DNA of 64,000 bases from contig CAWIEK010000016.1 of NCBI GenBank assembly GCA_963835065.1, positions 120,329 through 184,328 of the forward strand. The letters are read 5' to 3'. The DNA comes from an uncultured Chthonomonadaceae bacterium. Lineage in GTDB: Bacteria > Armatimonadota > Chthonomonadetes > Chthonomonadales > Chthonomonadaceae. Positions 1-10,001 of the stretch are shown piece after piece. Within the stretch, counting starts at the first letter, position 1, and the number at the start of each line of letters is the position of its first letter. The translations under genes and the position numbers were made by a program. The notes under the pieces were generated by a model. It was not told the DNA's origin, made no database searches, and worked only from the letters and a program-made list of their open reading frames with translations.

Positions 1-4
1 CGAA

Positions 5-1276
5 GTGATCGCGCAGGTATGGCAAAAGGGCGACTTAAACCGCGCGCTGGCCGCCGTGTTTCCCAACAACAGCCGCCCCGACCTGAACACGCCCCTGCCG
101 CAGCAAATCGCTGGCGTTCCTATTCTGGAGTCCGCGACGGTATGGGTGGGCGACAACCGATTGGAACCTGACGCCACCGGCGTGTATCACACCGACGCCA
201 AGCAGGTCAGTCTGAAATGCGCCTTCCGCCCGTCGAGTTCGCCAATCACCGCGCAGGCAGCGCTTAACCATGCCAATGGCAAGCCGTTTGCGCTTGTTAT
301 CAGAAAAAGTTTAGAGCAGGGACTCATCCCCCGGCAATCTACGGAACAGACGCTGGATGTTCCCAGTCTGGATGCCGGCCTGAACACCATTCGCATCTAT
401 GCGCAGAACGACAGCGGCATCAGCGATAATTCAGTGCGCGTGGAGCGCATCGCTTCTGCGCAACCGCAAACCCTGCGCGTACTGGCGGTAGGCATCAGCG
501 AGTACAACGACCCCGGTCTGCGCCTGCAGTACGCCCATAAGGACGCGGAGGCAATACGGGACTTTTTCCAAAGCAATGCGCAAGCCGGCGGCAAAAAGCT
601 GTTCGATGACGTGAAAACCGTTCTGGTAACAAATCAGGACGCCACGCGGAAAAACATCGAAAGCAAAATGGAAGATTTGCTGAAAGATGAGAAGCCGGAG
701 GATACCGTTCTGCTGTACTTTTCCTGTCATGGCTTTGACGCGGAGGGCAGGGAGGGCAAGACCTACTACCTGGCTCCCGCCGATGTCGCGGTCAAGCATA
801 CGCAGGGCGGCAGGAACACGATTCAAAACGGCTACGCCTGGAAGGACATTCTGGCGCGGCTGGCGAATGTGAAGGCGAAGCACATCATTGTGATGGTGGA
901 CCATTGCTTTGCCGGCGGCGTCAGCGAAACCCTGAATGACCCGCGCTTCCTCCTGGACAATGAGGACTTCAAGGATCAGAACGAAACCTTGCGCGAACTG
1001 CGGCAAAACAACATCCTGGTTTTCACCGCGTCTGCGGCCACAGAGTACAGTTACGAAGACAAAAATCGCGAACACGGCGCGTTCACGGCTTCCGTTCTGG
1101 ACGCCCTGCAAGGCAAGATGGATGCGGTTCTGTACCCAGACAATCTAGCACAGTTGAACGCGCTGGACTTCTGGGTTCCGCAGCAGGTGTCCGCCAACTT
1201 CAGTTCGCAGCATCCCGGCCTGTTCGCCCTGCCGAATGCCGACAAAGCGGTTCCACTGGCAGTGATTAGGCATTAG
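5..1276 (+). CDS. Caspase-like peptidase C14 domain protein (C-terminal part; probably starts before the window)
   Basis: LAVGISEY strand, FSCHG (His) and VDHCFAG (Cys) dyad, EHGAFT motif; stop codon lies in a (GGCATTA)n repeat. Confidence 0.85.
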   Translation: MIAQVWQKGDLNRALAAVFPNNSRPDLNTPLPQQIAGVPILESATVWVGDNRLEPDATGVYHTDAKQVSLKCAFRPSSSPITAQAALNHANGKPFALVIRKSLEQGLIPRQSTEQTLDVPSLDAGLNTIRIYAQNDSGISDNSVRVERIASAQPQTLRVLAVGISEYNDPGLRLQYAHKDAEAIRDFFQSNAQAGGKKLFDDVKTVLVTNQDATRKNIESKMEDLLKDEKPEDTVLLYFSCHGFDAEGREGKTYYLAPADVAVKHTQGGRNTIQNGYAWKDILARLANVKAKHIIVMVDHCFAGGVSETLNDPRFLLDNEDFKDQNETLRELRQNNILVFTASAATEYSYEDKNREHGAFTASVLDALQGKMDAVLYPDNLAQLNALDFWVPQQVSANFSSQHPGLFALPNADKAVPLAVIRH

Positions 1277-1362
1277 GCATTAGGCATTAGGCATTAGAGA
1301 AGAGAGAAGAGATATTCAGCTAGGTATAAGGGTACATCACCTAATGCCTAATGCCTAATGCC
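1265..1362. repeat. Inverted heptamer array (GGCATTA)n-(AGAAGAG)n ... (TAATGCC)n
   Basis: Read directly; outer arms are reverse complements. Confidence 0.95.
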
Positions 1363-1379
1363 TTCCCGAAGGAGTACCA

Positions 1380-3998
1380 ATGGCATTTCCGGGCAAAGCG
1401 ACCAAAGATTTTTTTATCAGTTACAACCAGAAAGATCAGCACTGGGCTGAATGGGTTGCCTGGGAACTGGAAGAAGCGGGCTATACGGCGATTGTGCAGG
1501 CGTGGGACTTTGGGGCGGGCAGCAACTTCGTCGTGGAAATGGATGAGGCCGCCAAAAACGCCGAACGGACGCTGGCGCTGTTGTCGCCGACGTATATCGC
1601 CTCCATTTTCACGCGCCCCGAATGGGCGGCGGCATTTGCGGACGACCCGACCAGCGTGAATCGCAAACTGATCCCCATTCGCGTGGAAGAGTGCGAACTG
1701 ACCGGGCTGCTGCGGCAGATCGTGTACATTGATCTTGTCGGCAAGGAGGAGCAGGACGCCCGCGAAATCCTACTGGCGCAGATCAAGGTCACGGAACGCG
1801 CCAAGCCGGCCACGCGCCCCTCATTCATGGGCAGCCGCAAGCCGGAAGTACAGGCGGTTGTTGCCGTAACCCCGTCCGCGCCCGGCGCGGAAAGTTCCCG
1901 CCCCGGTTTCCCGACCGCCAATGCGCCGTTTCAAGTGCCGTATCCGCGCCTCGCCTTTTTCACGGGGCGAGACGATCAACTGAATGCGCTGCATCAGGCG
2001 CTTATCGGGGGCGGGCGTACCACCGCGATACAGGCGCTTACCGGATTGGGTGGCATCGGCAAAACGCAAATGGCCGTTGAGTATGCGTACCAGTACCGGG
2101 AAGAATACAGCGCGATCTTATGGGCGCGGGCCGAAAACGAGCAGCAATTAAAGACGGACTTTGTTGGTATCGCCAAATTGCTGGACCTGCCGGAGCAGGA
2201 CGCGCCGGATCAGGACGAAACCCGCGATGCGGTGAAGCAGTGGCTTGCCTGCAACGAAAAGTGGCTGCTGATACTGGATAACGTGGACGCGCCGGCTGCC
2301 GTGAAACCGTTTCTGCCCGTGATTCACAGTGGCTGCGTACTGCTGACAACGCGCTCACAGGACGTACGCGCGCTGGGGATCGCCATGCCGCTGACCTTGC
2401 CGGAACTGTCGCCGAACGAAGCGCAAGCCTTTCTGCTGAAAAGCACCGGGCGCGAAAACGCCGAGCCGCAAGAGTGCGCGGCGGCAAAACAATTAGGCGT
2501 GGAATTGGGCGGGCTGCCACTCGCGCTGGAACAGGCGGCGGCATACGTCGGGCAAAACGACACGCCGTTTCAAAGCTACCTCAAATCTTTTAAGAAGCGC
2601 CGCCTGGCCCTCCTTAATGCGCAGGACCCCGTACAGGGCGATTATGCCCATTCGGTCGCTACGACATGGGACATCAATTTTCAGGTCATACAGCGCAAAT
2701 CCCCGGCATCGGTAGAACTGCTCAACCTGAGCGCGTTTCTTGCCCCGGAACGGATTCCGCTGGAACTGCTCATCAAATCTGCTGCGCTGCTTGGGCCTAA
2801 ACTGGAAGACGCGCTGGATGGAGCCGAAGAAGACGAACTGGTTCTGGACGATCTGCTGCTGCCCCTGACGCGCTACTCGTTGGCGCATCGTCAGCGTCAG
2901 TCCAACAGCTACGACGTTCACCGGCTGGTGCAGGCCGTGACGCGCCAGAATATGGACGACGCGCAGCGCGAATTGTGGACGGAGCGGGCCGTGTGTGCGG
3001 TCAGCCAATCGTTCCCCGAAGCGACGGTTGAAAATTGGCCGGCTTGCGAGCGGCTGTTGTCCCACGCCCTGATTTGCGCCGACCACATTGCGGCGGAAGG
3101 GTATGAATTTGAACCCGCTGTAGCGCTGCTGATTCAACTGGGCAATTATCTGTATGACCGCGCGCACTACGCCCTTGCCGAACCACTGATGGCGCGGGCG
3201 TTGGCCCTGCGGGAAAAAACGCTGCCCGCCAACGATCCCCAAATCGCCGAGCGCTGCATCAATCTGGCGGTGGTGTATTACCGTCAGCAGCGGTATGCGG
3301 AAGCGGAAGACTTGTACACTCGCGCGCTTCATATTTCGGAGGAGCATTACGGCCCAGAACATCCCGATGTTGCGTACTGCTTGAACAATCTGGCCGTGCT
3401 TTACATGGATCAGAATCGGTACGAGGAAGCGGAACCTTTATATCTTCGCGCCCTACACATACACGAAACCGCGCTCGGCCCCAATCATCAGCATACTGCC
3501 ACAAGTCTGAATAATCTGGCGCTGCTGCTGCAGCATCAGGGACGCTTGCGGGAAATGGAGCCGCTGTACCGCCGCGCCTATCGCATCGTGGACAAGACGC
3601 TCGGCCCCGAACACCCGGATACCGCCATGATCCTGAATAATCTGGCCGAACTTTACGAGCAGTTGAACCGCTATGTGGAAGCGGGGATGCTGTACCGCAG
3701 AGCGCTTGGCATTTTAGAAAAAGTATGTGGCGCGGAGCATCCCTTTGTCGCCTACGTGGTGGCGCATCTGGCCGGGCTGTATGATGAGCAGGGGAAGTAC
3801 GATGAATCGGAAGCGCACTACTGCCGCGCCCTGTCCATTTTCACCAACATTCTGGGCTGTGACCACAAGGAAACCTCGCAGTGCCGCGACAAGTACACGG
3901 CCCTGCTGCGCTCCCTGGGGCGCGACGACGAGGCCGACACGCTCACGCAAAACGCGCAAATCGTGGTGCAGACGCGAGAAAGCGCAGTGCGGCGATAG
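1380..3998 (+). CDS. TIR - NB-ARC (STAND NTPase) - TPR protein (NLR-like)
   Basis: DFFISY TIR start with TRPEW glutamate; Walker A GLGGIGKT, Walker B LLILDNVD, GLPLAL; kinesin-light-chain-type TPRs (HPDVAYCLNNLA); GAAGGAG RBS. Confidence 0.92.
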   Translation: MAFPGKATKDFFISYNQKDQHWAEWVAWELEEAGYTAIVQAWDFGAGSNFVVEMDEAAKNAERTLALLSPTYIASIFTRPEWAAAFADDPTSVNRKLIPIRVEECELTGLLRQIVYIDLVGKEEQDAREILLAQIKVTERAKPATRPSFMGSRKPEVQAVVAVTPSAPGAESSRPGFPTANAPFQVPYPRLAFFTGRDDQLNALHQALIGGGRTTAIQALTGLGGIGKTQMAVEYAYQYREEYSAILWARAENEQQLKTDFVGIAKLLDLPEQDAPDQDETRDAVKQWLACNEKWLLILDNVDAPAAVKPFLPVIHSGCVLLTTRSQDVRALGIAMPLTLPELSPNEAQAFLLKSTGRENAEPQECAAAKQLGVELGGLPLALEQAAAYVGQNDTPFQSYLKSFKKRRLALLNAQDPVQGDYAHSVATTWDINFQVIQRKSPASVELLNLSAFLAPERIPLELLIKSAALLGPKLEDALDGAEEDELVLDDLLLPLTRYSLAHRQRQSNSYDVHRLVQAVTRQNMDDAQRELWTERAVCAVSQSFPEATVENWPACERLLSHALICADHIAAEGYEFEPAVALLIQLGNYLYDRAHYALAEPLMARALALREKTLPANDPQIAERCINLAVVYYRQQRYAEAEDLYTRALHISEEHYGPEHPDVAYCLNNLAVLYMDQNRYEEAEPLYLRALHIHETALGPNHQHTATSLNNLALLLQHQGRLREMEPLYRRAYRIVDKTLGPEHPDTAMILNNLAELYEQLNRYVEAGMLYRRALGILEKVCGAEHPFVAYVVAHLAGLYDEQGKYDESEAHYCRALSIFTNILGCDHKETSQCRDKYTALLRSLGRDDEADTLTQNAQIVVQTRESAVRR

Positions 3999-4158
3999 GC
4001 AGGGAATTAGCCGCGAATGAACGCGAATGAACGCGAATGGTTCATCATGAGGAAACCCCCGTAATGTGAGTATCTCGTCACCGGTGAGTTGTCCTACGAC
4101 GCTCACCGGAAAACCAGTCAAAGAATATAATTGGTTCAAGCGGGGTTTTAGAAAGATA

Positions 4159-4962
4159 ATGCGAATGGCGTTGATGGCGGCGCAGGCAATTGATTTTGGC
4201 GGGGAATGGCACACGCGTATGGTGGTTGCTTCCGATGCTGCCGATGCCGGGGCTATTCTGGATGCGCTTGGTTTGGAGTTGCCGGACGCCGTACTGATGA
4301 TTTTTGGCGGCGCGGCCCACATGGAAACGGGATTGGAAACGGAGATTGCGGCGGCGTTTCGCAATTCTATTTTGCCCATTGTCGCCGCCTGCAACGCCCT
4401 GATTATAGATGGCGGGACGCAGGCGGGCATTATGGAGATCGTAGGCGCATTGGGCGCGGAAGGTACGCCGCGCCCGATTATGCTTGGCGTGGCTCCCCTG
4501 GGCGCGGTGACGTTTCCCGGCAAGGCGCAAATGGCGGACGTTCATGGTTTTGCCGCTGTGCCGGAAGCGGAAATCGGTGGTCTTGCCCCACTCGATCCCA
4601 ATCATTCCCACTTCGCGCTGACGCCCACAACCGAATGGGGCAGCGAAACGGCAACCATGTTCCAACTGGCCGTCGCGCTTTCAAAGCGGGAAGCCAAACC
4701 GCGCCCCCTCGCCGCGCTGCTGTTTAACGGCGGCATGATCGCCAAACAGGAAGCCCTGCAATGTATACGGCAGGGCTGGCCCCTCATCGCGCTGCAGGGA
4801 ACCGGGCGGCTGGCCGACCAGATCGCGCAGGCCAAATCACAGCAACCCCTCACGCCCGAAGATACCGAACTGGCCGAAATCGTCACAAGCGATAGGCTGA
4901 AGGTGGTTTCCCTTGCCGATGTTGCCGACGCGCTGGGGGAGGCATTAGATATTAGATATTAG
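4159..4962 (+). CDS. SLOG-superfamily protein, TRPM-like prokaryotic LSDAT type (start uncertain, 4066-4174)
   Basis: IFGGA, IDGGTQAGIM, LDPNHSHF, WGSET, NGG, GTGRLAD motifs. Confidence 0.85.
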   Translation: MRMALMAAQAIDFGGEWHTRMVVASDAADAGAILDALGLELPDAVLMIFGGAAHMETGLETEIAAAFRNSILPIVAACNALIIDGGTQAGIMEIVGALGAEGTPRPIMLGVAPLGAVTFPGKAQMADVHGFAAVPEAEIGGLAPLDPNHSHFALTPTTEWGSETATMFQLAVALSKREAKPRPLAALLFNGGMIAKQEALQCIRQGWPLIALQGTGRLADQIAQAKSQQPLTPEDTELAEIVTSDRLKVVSLADVADALGEALDIRY

Positions 4963-5058
4963 GCAGAAGAGGGAACAGGGAACAGGAGAGGATGCCCTAT
5001 CAACTATCATCTATCAACTATCAACTCCTGATTCATCCTTCATCCCTCATCCTCATCC
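4943..5058. repeat. Composite heptamer array ATATTAG/GGGAACA ... CTATCAA/TTCATCC
   Basis: Read directly; closely similar to the array at 31864-32012. Confidence 0.95.
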
Positions 5059-5073
5059 CGGAAGGTCACTGCG

Positions 5074-5559
5074 ATGCTCACGGACGCCTGGAAGCTGTAT
5101 GCGAGTTATGATTACAACGCGCAGCTTCAACAGAAAAACTTTCGCCGCTATCAGGGTACGCTGCTGCTGCTTGGATTGGCGGCAACGCTGCTGGCAACGC
5201 TGCTGGCCGGACGGCAGATGGGCCAGATGAGCGGCTTTTGGAAGCTGTCGTTCGTGCCAAATGATAATATCTTTACGACGGCGATTGTGCTGATAACCGC
5301 CGCCACGTCCGGCCTGTTAAGCGCTCTGAGCCGCTACAAGCCGGGAGAAAAATGGCTGGCCCTGCGCGCGTCGGCGCAATCGGTGCAGCGGGAGATTTAT
5401 GGCTATCTGATGCAGGCGGGCGAATACCGCGATCATCCTGAACCCGCGCTGTTGTACCACCGATTAAACGCGATTTCTACGGGATTGGCCGACATCATTC
5501 TGCACGAGCCGATGGCGGCAAGCGCGCAGCCTGCCGATATGGAGCAAGCCGGTAGTTGA
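5074..5559 (+). CDS. SLATT-like (DUF4231) two-TM domain protein
   Basis: Two hydrophobic helices followed by KWLALRASAQSVQREIYGY. Confidence 0.75.
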   Translation: MLTDAWKLYASYDYNAQLQQKNFRRYQGTLLLLGLAATLLATLLAGRQMGQMSGFWKLSFVPNDNIFTTAIVLITAATSGLLSALSRYKPGEKWLALRASAQSVQREIYGYLMQAGEYRDHPEPALLYHRLNAISTGLADIILHEPMAASAQPADMEQAGS

Positions 5560-5569
5560 AACCTTTCCC

Positions 5570-6103
5570 ATGACGCCGGAGCATTATGTCGCGCTGCGCC
5601 TGACCGATCAGGCCGCGTACTATCACCGCAAGGTTGGCAAACTGAACCGGCAGGCGCAATGGCTGCACGGAGCCAGTATTGTGGCCGGCACGGCGGGAAC
5701 CATCCTTGCCCTGCTCAACCACCCCCTGTGGGTTCCCTTTACGGCGGCGGTAACGACAGCCTGCATCAGCTACCTGCAGCAGCGGCAAATCGAAGTGACG
5801 CTGGCGCAGTACAATCAAAGCGGCAACAGCCTGGAGCGTATTGATCGCTGGTGGCGCAACGAACTGACCGAGACCGAGCGCGCGCTGCCGGAAAACCGGG
5901 ATAAGCTCGTCAGCTTCACCGAAGACATTCTCGCGGCGGAACTGACCAGTTGGACGCAAAAACTCAGCGAAGCGATGGCGAAGATGGCGACTCCCCCGAC
6001 GGGAGAGGCAAAAGGAACTTTGACCGCTCCCAATCCTGTCGCGCCTGCTCATGCTGCGCCCGGCCCCGCGCTCCCTCCCATTGTAAATCAAAAAATAATA
6101 TGA
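5570..6103 (+). CDS. Second SLATT-like two-TM domain (may be the same gene as 5074-5559, frameshifted)
   Basis: YVALRLTDQAAYY, two TM helices, LVSFTEDILAAELTSW. Confidence 0.75.
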   Translation: MTPEHYVALRLTDQAAYYHRKVGKLNRQAQWLHGASIVAGTAGTILALLNHPLWVPFTAAVTTACISYLQQRQIEVTLAQYNQSGNSLERIDRWWRNELTETERALPENRDKLVSFTEDILAAELTSWTQKLSEAMAKMATPPTGEAKGTLTAPNPVAPAHAAPGPALPPIVNQKII

Positions 6104-6105
6104 CT

Positions 6106-6140
6106 CTCACTTCCGATACCGTTATAGTATCGGAAGTGAG
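6106..6140 (+). terminator. 14-bp hairpin after SLATT stop
   Basis: CTCACTTCCGATAC-N7-GTATCGGAAGTGAG; no U-tract. Confidence 0.5.
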
Positions 6141-6171
6141 GTCCGTTATACCCTGTATGGAGGCAAGTTGG

Positions 6172-7989: not shown

Positions 7990-8937
7990 ATGAGGAGGCG
8001 CGTGGTGATCTTTGCGCTAAGTTGTTTATGGCTGGCTGTTGCCGGCAGATTGTGTGGGCAGGAGGAGCAAGCGGGCGCGGGTAAGACTGCGCCTTCGGTT
8101 GAAGTTACTCGCGCAATGGCGGGAGAAACGTATCGCGTTCCTTATCGCCTGAGCGACACCAAGCATATCTTGATACGCGCCCGAATCAATGGCAAAGGGC
8201 CGTTTACGTTTATACTGGATACGGGCGCTCCCGCCATCTATGTGGCAAGCGACGCGGCCAAACAGATTGGCTTGAAGGCCGCGAAAAACGGGTGGGCAAA
8301 TATAACGCGCATGGAAGTGGAAGGCGGCGCAGTTGTCGAAAACGTGGCCGCGCGGCTGGAAGACCCGACGCCCCTCAAAGGCATGAACGCGCTCGGAATG
8401 GAAGGTACGCATATTGACGGCATTTTGGGTTACAACCTGCTGGCCCGCTTTGCGATAGACATTGACTTGTCCCGCCCGCGCCTGCTCTGGACGCGGCAGG
8501 AAGCGTTTGCGGATGACGTGCCGGACATGCAGGCGCTCACGGGTGGCAAGCCGATCACACTGCCCAAAAGCATGGCGCAAATGGACAGCATGGCGGCCAA
8601 TCTGCCCAAGATGATGGCGAAATTAAAGACCGATACCCTTATACGCGGGTTTGTGGGCATTGAACTGCTGCCTGACAACGGGGCGGGCAATGTGGCGGGA
8701 CAGGTACGCATTGCCCGCGTCCTTGCCGATAGCCCTGCTGCCCGCGCCGGGCTGCGGGAGGGAGATATTATTCGCGCTCTGGCTTTGGGTACGTCGCCGT
8801 TTCAGCCGGTGACGCATGCTGCCGACGCGCTGCGTTTGGCGCGCGATTGGGAAGCCGGCAAGCCGGGACGGTTGCAAATACTTCGGAATGGCGGCAAGCG
8901 CGAAGTCGTGGTGACAGCCGGGGCGGGAGGGTTTTAA
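7990..8937 (+). CDS. Secreted retropepsin-like aspartyl protease with PDZ domain
   Basis: FILDTGA, DGILG, SPAARAGLREGD. Confidence 0.88.
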   Translation: MRRRVVIFALSCLWLAVAGRLCGQEEQAGAGKTAPSVEVTRAMAGETYRVPYRLSDTKHILIRARINGKGPFTFILDTGAPAIYVASDAAKQIGLKAAKNGWANITRMEVEGGAVVENVAARLEDPTPLKGMNALGMEGTHIDGILGYNLLARFAIDIDLSRPRLLWTRQEAFADDVPDMQALTGGKPITLPKSMAQMDSMAANLPKMMAKLKTDTLIRGFVGIELLPDNGAGNVAGQVRIARVLADSPAARAGLREGDIIRALALGTSPFQPVTHAADALRLARDWEAGKPGRLQILRNGGKREVVVTAGAGGF

Positions 8938-10001
8938 TGGCAGCAGGGAGACGCTATTTAAATAGGAAGGGAATTCGGTGTTTTGCGAGCCGCGTTCCCG
9001 CGCAAAATGCCGGGGCGTTGCGTAATCGGCTCCTCTTCATGAGCATAATGGCGTGGCTTGGAATCGGCTGCGGCAGCGTCAAAGCGCAGGAGCGAACCAA
9101 CACTACAAACGCTGCTAAATCCGTGTTCACACAGGCGCAACCGGGGCAGTCCATACAGGCAGCGACGGCGGAGACGAAAGCAAGTCATCCCGTTGTAAGA
9201 GTAACCGGACATGAAACACTGGAAATTTTACCGTCTCGGCATCTTGCGCTGCGGGTAATCCTCAATGGAAAAGGGCCGTTCCGCATGATCTTGGATACCG
9301 GATCGCCCATTACCTTCATTACCAACGCCGCCGCTCTGAAAAGCGGGCTGCTGAAAGCGCAGCAGGCCAATCAGCCCGCGCTGTTCGGGATGCGCGGGCA
9401 GGTGATAGCGAAAACAATCGGTGTCGGCAAAACCTTGCTGAACGACTTTCCTTTACTGGTGCTGGATCATCCCGTAATCGAAACCTTGCAGCAGGTGGAA
9501 GGCCCGCTTGACGGCATTTTAGGGTTTTCCTTTTTCGCGCGCTACCGCACGGTGATTGATTATGTCCATAAAAGCGCGCAGTTTACGCCCAACGGTTATC
9601 AGCCGGAAGATTTGTTAGGCAGTTTGATGACGCGGCTGATGAGCAATCAGGCCAGCCATCGGAATCTGGCTTCTCTGGGATTGTGGGGAATGGAAGTGGC
9701 GCAAGCCGCCGCGCCAAAAGCCTCACCGACACCAAAATTCTCACAGCCCGGGCAAAAGGCGGAGCAAAACGATCCACAGCCGGGCATTATAATTACCCGC
9801 GTGTATGCCGATAGCGCCGCCGCGCAGAGTGGATTGCAAGCGGGAGATCGCCTGCTGTCTGTTGAGGAACATTGGACGGACACGCTGGAAGATTGCCTGG
9901 ACGCGGCAGGTCAGATCAAGCCGGGAGAAAAAACCACGTTGCATATTCTACGCGATGGTAAGCCTCTGGATATTGTGATTACCCCGCGCATCGGGCTGTA
10001 A
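8937..10001 (+). CDS. Second retropepsin-like aspartyl protease with PDZ domain
   Basis: MILDTGS, DGILG, SAAAQSGLQAGD; TAATG stop/start overlap. Confidence 0.88.
   Translation: MAAGRRYLNRKGIRCFASRVPAQNAGALRNRLLFMSIMAWLGIGCGSVKAQERTNTTNAAKSVFTQAQPGQSIQAATAETKASHPVVRVTGHETLEILPSRHLALRVILNGKGPFRMILDTGSPITFITNAAALKSGLLKAQQANQPALFGMRGQVIAKTIGVGKTLLNDFPLLVLDHPVIETLQQVEGPLDGILGFSFFARYRTVIDYVHKSAQFTPNGYQPEDLLGSLMTRLMSNQASHRNLASLGLWGMEVAQAAAPKASPTPKFSQPGQKAEQNDPQPGIIITRVYADSAAAQSGLQAGDRLLSVEEHWTDTLEDCLDAAGQIKPGEKTTLHILRDGKPLDIVITPRIGL

Follow-up and report, generated by a model that had tools for sequence, protein, structure and literature searches.

A TIR-NB-ARC-TPR gene beside TRPM2-like SLOG and tandem SLATT genes in a Chthonomonadaceae genome: a candidate Thoeris-like relay

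Introduction

Thoeris systems combine a TIR protein bearing a catalytic glutamate with an adjacent effector that carries a nucleotide-sensing module, and recent accounts separate them into types. Type I is described with an effector joining SIR2 to a STALD-type SLOG domain and type III with an SMF/DprA-type SLOG and several TIRs (PMC13276650), while type IV pairs a short TIR with a caspase carrying a C-terminal domain (10.1101/2024.10.24.620036). Type VII, composed of the TIR protein ThsB and the SLATT protein ThsH, is reported as a verified system producing cyclic ADP-ribose (cADPR), in a systematic survey from which the TIRs of Avs proteins were removed (10.64898/2025.12.03.692087). SLATT domains have been predicted to act as pore-forming effectors (PMC7159879, PMC9503650). 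Here we describe a locus at the start of a 64,000-nucleotide stretch of DNA (hereafter the window; positions 120,329 to 184,328 of contig CAWIEK010000016.1, assembly GCA_963835065.1) from an uncultured Chthonomonadaceae bacterium. In it, a gene for a TIR-NB-ARC-TPR protein of the STAND/NLR kind is followed by a gene for a SLOG domain of the LSDAT_prok family and by one for two tandem SLATT domains (Table 1). These likely form a three-gene unit, from which a neighbouring caspase gene would drop out.

Judged by its sequence, the locus would work like Thoeris yet matches none of types I, III, IV and VII as those accounts define them. The general features are there, namely a TIR with its catalytic glutamate and an adjacent effector with a predicted nucleotide-sensing module (LSDAT SLOG plus SLATT-SLATT). 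As in type VII, a TIR gene accompanies a SLATT membrane effector and a signal of the ADP-ribose (ADPR) type is predicted, but here the TIR heads an 872-aa STAND/NLR protein, a TRPM-type SLOG gene lies between, and the effector has two SLATT domains; with three genes, an NB-ARC-TPR fusion and an extra SLOG in place of a two-gene operon of non-STAND TIR and SLATT, membership of type VII was rejected. Types I and III likewise place a SLOG where it could read a TIR product. The SLOG of the window is, however, of the LSDAT/TRPM type rather than STALD or SMF/DprA, SIR2 is missing, the predicted output is a membrane effector and PADLOC gave no hit, and these types were set aside. Type IV shares a caspase gene beside a TIR gene, but in the window the caspase domain closes a WD40 protein, with no further domain behind it; this protein starts with an export-like leader and is part of a different repeated module; it meets a TIR in one orthologous pair among seven copies, and this type was rejected too.

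The TIR-STAND-TPR architecture, with its motifs intact, is that of TIR-NLR, Avs and bNACHT proteins, in which the TIR is thought to be a NAD-depleting effector (PMC9122126), whereas here a candidate receptor-effector pair follows. The locus also contains the LSDAT_prok-SLATT module, an LSDAT SLOG of the same family lying beside both SLATT domains in the same order, although SLOG and SLATT-SLATT are separate genes here and have a TIR-NB-ARC-TPR partner. LSDAT_prok-SLATT fusions were reportedly predicted by Burroughs et al. in 2015, a prediction reflected in Pfam names; our literature searches found no experimental test of the family. A full-text search, with most subscription journals outside its coverage, returned no title or abstract opening on a TIR-NLR with LSDAT SLOG and SLATT. 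An LSDAT/SLATT effector may be among the 29 putative types of the Thoeris survey cited above (10.64898/2025.12.03.692087).

Results and Discussion

A candidate relay

We propose, as a reading with an even chance of being right, that the three genes encode a Thoeris-like relay in which the TIR of the NLR makes an ADPR-type signal, the SLOG binds it and the SLATT protein opens. The TPRs would sense an invader protein, presumably from a phage; binding of this ligand would oligomerise the NB-ARC domain and activate the TIR, which would turn NAD+ into a product of the ADPR type. Binding of this product to the TRPM2-like SLOG would open SLATT-SLATT in trans, and the opened membrane effector would arrest or kill the infected cell. 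Co-transcription of the trio is assumed. Ligand-driven oligomerisation and activation are established for STAND proteins, as is conversion of NAD+ to ADPR-type products for TIRs with such a glutamate. That SLOG could gate SLATT is suggested by SLOG-SLATT fusions (see below), by TRPM2 and by ThsA (10.1101/2021.01.06.425286).

The NLR has the layout of STAND/NLR-like proteins (TIR-NLR, Avs-like): an N-terminal TIR effector (TIR_2, E 8e-34), a central STAND NTPase with Walker A and B motifs, and C-terminal repeats, with 389 bits against the NCBIfam model FxSxx_TPR (cut-off 300). Glu81 of the TIR is kept in 118 of 120 NLR homologues. The original prediction had held the caspase dyad, TIR glutamate and Walker motifs to be intact, and all were located at the codons given in Table 1.

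For comparison we used a sister locus (L004) from an uncultured Chthonomonadaceae genome; the match in genome G223 is the same stretch and was counted once. Conservation of the neighbourhood, proposed earlier as a check, reaches two genomes of the genus: the trio has the same order in both, with differing flanking genes, and the exact pairing of NLR with SLOG/SLATT was found in this genus only. The divergence at four-fold degenerate sites is 0.22-0.39 throughout the genes. Protein identity between the two copies is 98.6% in the TIR, 94.5% in the NB-ARC, 88.4% in the linker region and 71.7% in the TPR; it is 73.6% in the SLOG, 75.7 and 84.7% in the SLATT domains and 53.2%, the lowest of the locus, in the caspase domain. 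The TIR enzyme and NB-ARC switch are strongly constrained and the TPR repeats change faster, as expected of a sensor, in a comparison of two genomes from which positive selection cannot be shown.

Neighbours of SLOG genes elsewhere were mapped with local profiles, counting a co-oriented TIR within 600 bp; these profiles missed divergent SLATT domains found by Pfam (L039, L051, L078), and counts "with SLATT" are therefore low. Within the order of genome G250, for which all 31 listed LSDAT loci were fetched (several ending at contig edges), ten had such a TIR, against 0.16 expected from TIR counts, an excess of about 60-fold. The TIR lay beside LSDAT at 6/25 loci with SLATT and at 4/6 without, and the six partners scanned comprised five TIR-WD40 proteins and one short TIR ORF (open reading frame). 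In genome G704, the TIR-WD40 neighbour of a fused SLOG-SLATT-SLATT gene is the sole TIR match. All 29 LSDAT genomes of this order contain a TIR, as against 18 of 26 others, in a comparison where kin are not independent and genome size is not controlled. On a quick tree of 75 SLOGs, in which L004 was wrongly labelled "no TIR" on account of its frameshifted NLR gene, the TIR-adjacent label needs nine changes, at least six of them forced by well-supported branches. The sensors beside SLOG-SLATT vary (TIR-WD40, TIR-NACHT, TIR-FGE, and the NLR of the window). On the evidence of these neighbourhoods, LSDAT-family SLOG genes have repeatedly acquired TIR-type enzymes as partners, and the sensor domains of these partners differ. 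An independent parallel in genome G555 (L202/L234; L234:13346-18080) has DUF4062-NB-ARC-TPR, LSDAT SLOG and SLATT_1 genes in one direction, with DUF4062 replacing the TIR.

At L181:10165-16404 and L183:9890-14683, fused SLOG-SLATT-SLATT genes are followed directly by genes for WD40 proteins that carry three to five TIR domains in tandem.

The SLOG domain as candidate receptor

The best solved relatives of the SLOG are the MHR1/2 domains of TRPM2, both by sequence (E 1e-26) and by the predicted structure (pLDDT 90.8; Foldseek E 1e-15, TMq 0.74). In zebrafish TRPM2, six side chains contact ADPR (T150, T186, Y271, R278, T312 and R334; PMC7201885); these were mapped from a sequence alignment and their conservation counted over 220 SLOG homologues. 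The adenine contacts T186 and Y271 correspond to T87 and W160 (218/220 each) and the alpha-phosphate contact R334 to R217 (203/220). The beta-phosphate contact T312 is replaced by A195, and the distal-ribose contacts T150 and R278 by F49 and M167, leaving three of the six not kept. The SLOG likely holds an adenine-nucleotide pocket, and since the distal-ribose contacts are lost, its ligand may be unlike linear ADPR in its distal part and may not be plain ADPR; possibly it is a new one. TRPM2 and the locus thus share a fold and the coupling of a ligand domain to a membrane protein, and differ in these contacts and in the membrane part, here SLATT.

The SLOG is separate from SLATT-SLATT in the sister locus as well, and its closest homologues are stand-alone proteins of 242-279 aa. 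Among longer homologues, drawn from the best 7,994 candidates scored, 100/105 carry both SLATT domains in one chain, in the order of the window, and 104/105 carry at least one SLATT-type domain; the SLATT gene of the window starts where the SLATT part of the fused proteins starts (consensus). A complex prediction for SLOG with SLATT-SLATT scored 0.00 in two runs, controls not being folded, and was used neither for nor against the relay.

Might the SLOG instead modify or clear what the TIR makes, as an enzyme (a LOG-like N-glycosidase) or as a buffer (a threshold setter), with the SLATT protein binding the signal itself? We consider this improbable. TRPM2 MHR1/2, to which the SLOG is structurally closest, serves as a gating site, and the habitual fusion to membrane domains suits a ligand gate. 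Yet the pocket contains an invariant glutamate (E163), and stand-alone LSDAT genes often accompany DRHyd/TPR-S, patatin or 8xMP genes, not SLATT; DRHyd is what we take to be the name of the gene that Pfam calls MAP3K_TRAF_bd and TPR-S. In a sample of 80 from 489 metagenome loci (43 clusters at 90%), DRHyd/TPR-S genes occurred at 35, a TIR in either orientation at 15 and a co-oriented TIR at 4. Some SLOG families are nucleotide-cleaving enzymes (PMC9503650), and ThsH has been proposed to bind cADPR without a SLOG (10.64898/2025.12.03.692087).

Other arrangements of LSDAT genes were observed. A common soil-metagenome cluster (L023-L097, e.g. L028, L032, L048) comprises TPR-S-trypsin, a Tle1-like phospholipase, SLATT, MAP3K_TRAF_bd/TPR-S, stand-alone LSDAT and patatin, often with a TIR. 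Some stand-alone LSDAT genes that group near that of the window in the tree have an 8xMP membrane protein in place of SLATT, either encoded next or fused to them (L060:3148-3639, L080:8772-9260, protein P0019), which would make 8xMP an alternative membrane effector for stand-alone LSDAT. An 823-aa protein with RelA_SpoT, TPR, LSDAT_prok and RyR (L003:55-2526, genome G005) joins a SLOG to a domain of the alarmone-synthetase type.

One circuit or two modules

The trio could also consist of two independent modules, an autonomous NAD-depleting TIR-NLR and a SLOG/SLATT-SLATT pair answering some other nucleotide signal (from another TIR, a DRHyd enzyme or NAD stress), brought together by the clustering of conflict genes. 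We think this possible, though doubtful: co-oriented adjacency to different TIR sensors recurs on at least six branches of the SLOG tree, and the gene order of the trio has persisted between different flanks. Several observations nevertheless weigh against a relay, beginning with the three contacts missing from the SLOG pocket, and some of them speak for separate modules. Outside the phylum, 30 of 38 SLOG-SLATT modules have no co-oriented TIR alongside, and in Chloroflexota none of eight has one. At the six loci of the phylum that hold the nearest relatives of the TIR (51-58% identity), the DNA fetched contains neither SLOG nor SLATT; three of these loci are on short contigs, and four lie in genomes without an LSDAT match. 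The TIR-NB-ARC-TPR family itself is very large, with at least 3,947 matches. The exact trio was found in 2/68 genomes of the order, and G224, a genome of the same genus that is 97% complete, lacks it. A TIR-STAND-TPR system protects E. coli, with no SLOG or SLATT described in the available part of that account (PMC9122126). The genes flanking the trio do not resemble a defence island, and PADLOC, suggested with the original prediction as a check, has no model matching the SLOG or SLATT and made no system-specific hit at the locus. Spacers of 160 and 111 bp within the trio are filled with genome-wide repeats, and the SLATT gene, frameshifted in this assembly, may be inactive in this strain.

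Other counts bear on the same question. Co-oriented TIRs occurred at 0/23 LSDAT loci in a sample of 20 of about 42 Chloroflexota matches (chosen for contig room and architecture) and three other loci; at 3/23 a TIR was adjacent on the opposite strand, and the two scanned are TIR/TPR-S. The DUF4062 arrangement of G555 is one of these 23. LSDAT occurs in 2/201 genomes sampled from the phylum, and a plasmid search gave two records, neither with a co-oriented TIR neighbour. The genome of the window (G000) contains about 43 STAND/NB-ARC-like ORFs, eight TIR ORFs (seven besides that of the NLR), six caspase ORFs and one SLOG in 8 Mb.

Within the relay that we prefer, SLOG-SLATT looks like a plug-in receptor-effector, which would damage the membrane in response to whatever an active TIR produces. 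Such a role fits both the repeated recruitment of TIRs and the many modules without an adjacent one. If different TIR sensors recruit such a plug-in, signalling and the loss of NAD could also go together.

The SLATT-SLATT gene and its frameshift

The original prediction counted five co-oriented ORFs. Five same-strand frames do exist, but they amount to four genes, the two SLATT frames being one gene and the caspase ORF the tail of another. In the sister locus the SLATT halves form a single 342-aa ORF, and in contigs from two sequencing runs of separate studies (X1 and X2, with about 96-97% identity to this part of the window) one base is absent at 5555, so that the halves share a frame; five separate genes were ruled out on both grounds. 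Short contigs of a third run (X3) match the window exactly in places, none spanning 5555. The linker of the gene is 11 bases shorter in the window than in L004. The break would be an assembly error or a recent strain mutation, and we favour an indel error because split frames occur elsewhere in this assembly and in L004; several paralogues in the window's genome are split across frames, suggesting assembly indel errors.

A hydropathy scan of SLATT-SLATT recovered three of the four expected helices. For the structural model (pLDDT 87.9), Foldseek found nothing at E<=0.001 and the matches otherwise obtained were generic helical bundles (best Z 9.9); SLATT gave no significant match to TRP channels.

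Layout of the locus

The features are collected in Table 1, each Pfam assignment lying above its curated cut-off. The SLOG gene, formerly started at 4066, probably begins at 4159 or 4165 (P0001).

Table 1. Features of the locus in window coordinates, with frames of the ORF listing and Pfam families.
Feature	Coordinates	Strand	Frame(s)	Pfam	Remarks
3' part of WD40-caspase, 1,167 aa whole	1..1276	+	2-1276	Peptidase_C14	His 728-730, Cys 905-907; start ~2.2 kb upstream of window
TIR-NB-ARC-(DUF7779)-TPR STAND protein, 872 aa	1380..3998	+	1380-3998	TIR_2+NB-ARC+DUF7779+TPR	Glu81 1620-1622, Walker A Lys228 2061-2063, Walker B Asp300 2277-2279; predicted sensor and signal generator
Stand-alone SLOG (TRPM MHR1/2-like), 267 aa	4159..4962	+	4066/4159-4962	LSDAT_prok	T87, W160, R217 of TRPM2 ADPR site kept; predicted ligand receptor
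Tandem SLATT gene	5074..6103	+	5074-5559 / 5570-6103	DUF4231/SLATT_3; SLATT_1	One-base frameshift near 5555; predicted membrane effector
Perfect 14-bp inverted repeat, 7-nt loop	6106..6140	.			Unique in genome, no U-tract; possible transcript end
GGCATTA tandem repeat	1261..1296	.			Among genome-wide short intergenic repeats; others in spacers ~4005-4040, 4990-5055

The WD40-caspase neighbour

The first ORF had been taken to start at position 5 and to offer possible protease control of the signalling genes. It is in fact the last 424 aa of a WD40-caspase begun upstream, which was compared in seven copies from G000, G223 and G224. A circuit of the type IV Thoeris kind, with this caspase acting on the TIR-NLR or the TIR-NLR on the caspase, strikes us as very improbable. 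The His/Cys dyad is intact, and the gene is co-oriented with the NLR across a gap of 103 bp, an adjacency repeated in L004 and in a 5.5-kb X2 contig. All seven copies, however, begin with a basic, hydrophobic and small-residue N-terminus resembling an export signal (hydropathy scan), and a protease outside the cytoplasm would not meet a cytoplasmic nucleotide signal. Six of the seven directly follow a homologue of one 227-aa gene, lipoprotein-like genes lie upstream in five of the seven stretches, and a TIR gene follows only the window copy and its orthologue. The caspase domain is moreover the least conserved part of the locus, and caspases lie within 5 kb of 3/135 SLOG loci outside the phylum. 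The WD40-caspase is likely an exported bystander, part of a separate cluster of secreted proteins, and the proposed protease control finds no support.

This cluster is a recurrent module of the genus, with lipoprotein-like genes, two or three in number and one of them encoding Big_2 Ig domains, the 227-aa protein and the export-signal WD40-caspase. Its sites are L001:11950-19602 (upstream of the window), G000 C11 74376-83400, L221, L222 and L223, giving six copies in three genomes. The 227-aa protein has an export-like leader and no Pfam match, and appears beta-barrel-like by eye.

Hairpin, spacers and flanks

The hairpin said to close the locus is present and perfect (-30.4 kcal/mol, z -4.2, 0/200 shuffles as good), but its terminator role did not hold up equally: with no U-tract and no call in the terminator scan, it was rejected as an established intrinsic terminator. 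Its single occurrence in the genome likewise excluded a repeat element. The promoter scan gave one site against 3.4 expected and the terminator scan nine against 8.7. The right boundary (window 6080-6150) is unstable, in that the gene after SLATT differs in L004 and the X1 and X2 contigs diverge between 6080 and 6148.

Intergenic tandem repeats (units such as GGCATTA and TCAACTA; window 1261-1296, 4005-4040, 4990-5055) yielded 58 to 418 exact genome copies with probes of 12-15 bases, and short repeats of this kind are common to G000, G223 and G224. Further downstream (window 7990-10001) lie two tandem aspartyl-protease-PDZ genes with export-like leaders.

Conclusions

Comparative genomics had largely anticipated the parts of this locus and the way they are paired; an NLR acting as signal generator and a receptor of the TRPM2 type would be new. 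The usual view of the TIRs of bacterial NLR and Avs proteins is that they kill by depleting NAD, and they were excluded from the largest survey of TIR signalling. We suggest tentatively, as the less probable end of our proposal, that the TIR of a bacterial NLR may here be a signal generator and not the executioner, and that a TRPM2-type site would open a SLATT pore, in parallel with the TIR-NLR, small molecule and channel of plants; this may also have been the ancestral immune task of the TRPM N-terminal domain. If true, an NLR whose TIR feeds a separate receptor would place the wiring of sensor, enzyme, receptor and pore, as in plant TIR-NLR immunity, in bacteria too. As the candidate receptor belongs to the family of the ADPR-gating domain of TRPM2, the trio, or fused SLOG-SLATT-SLATT proteins together with their TIR-WD40 neighbours, would offer a small system in which to ask what the original ligand and gating of that domain may have been.

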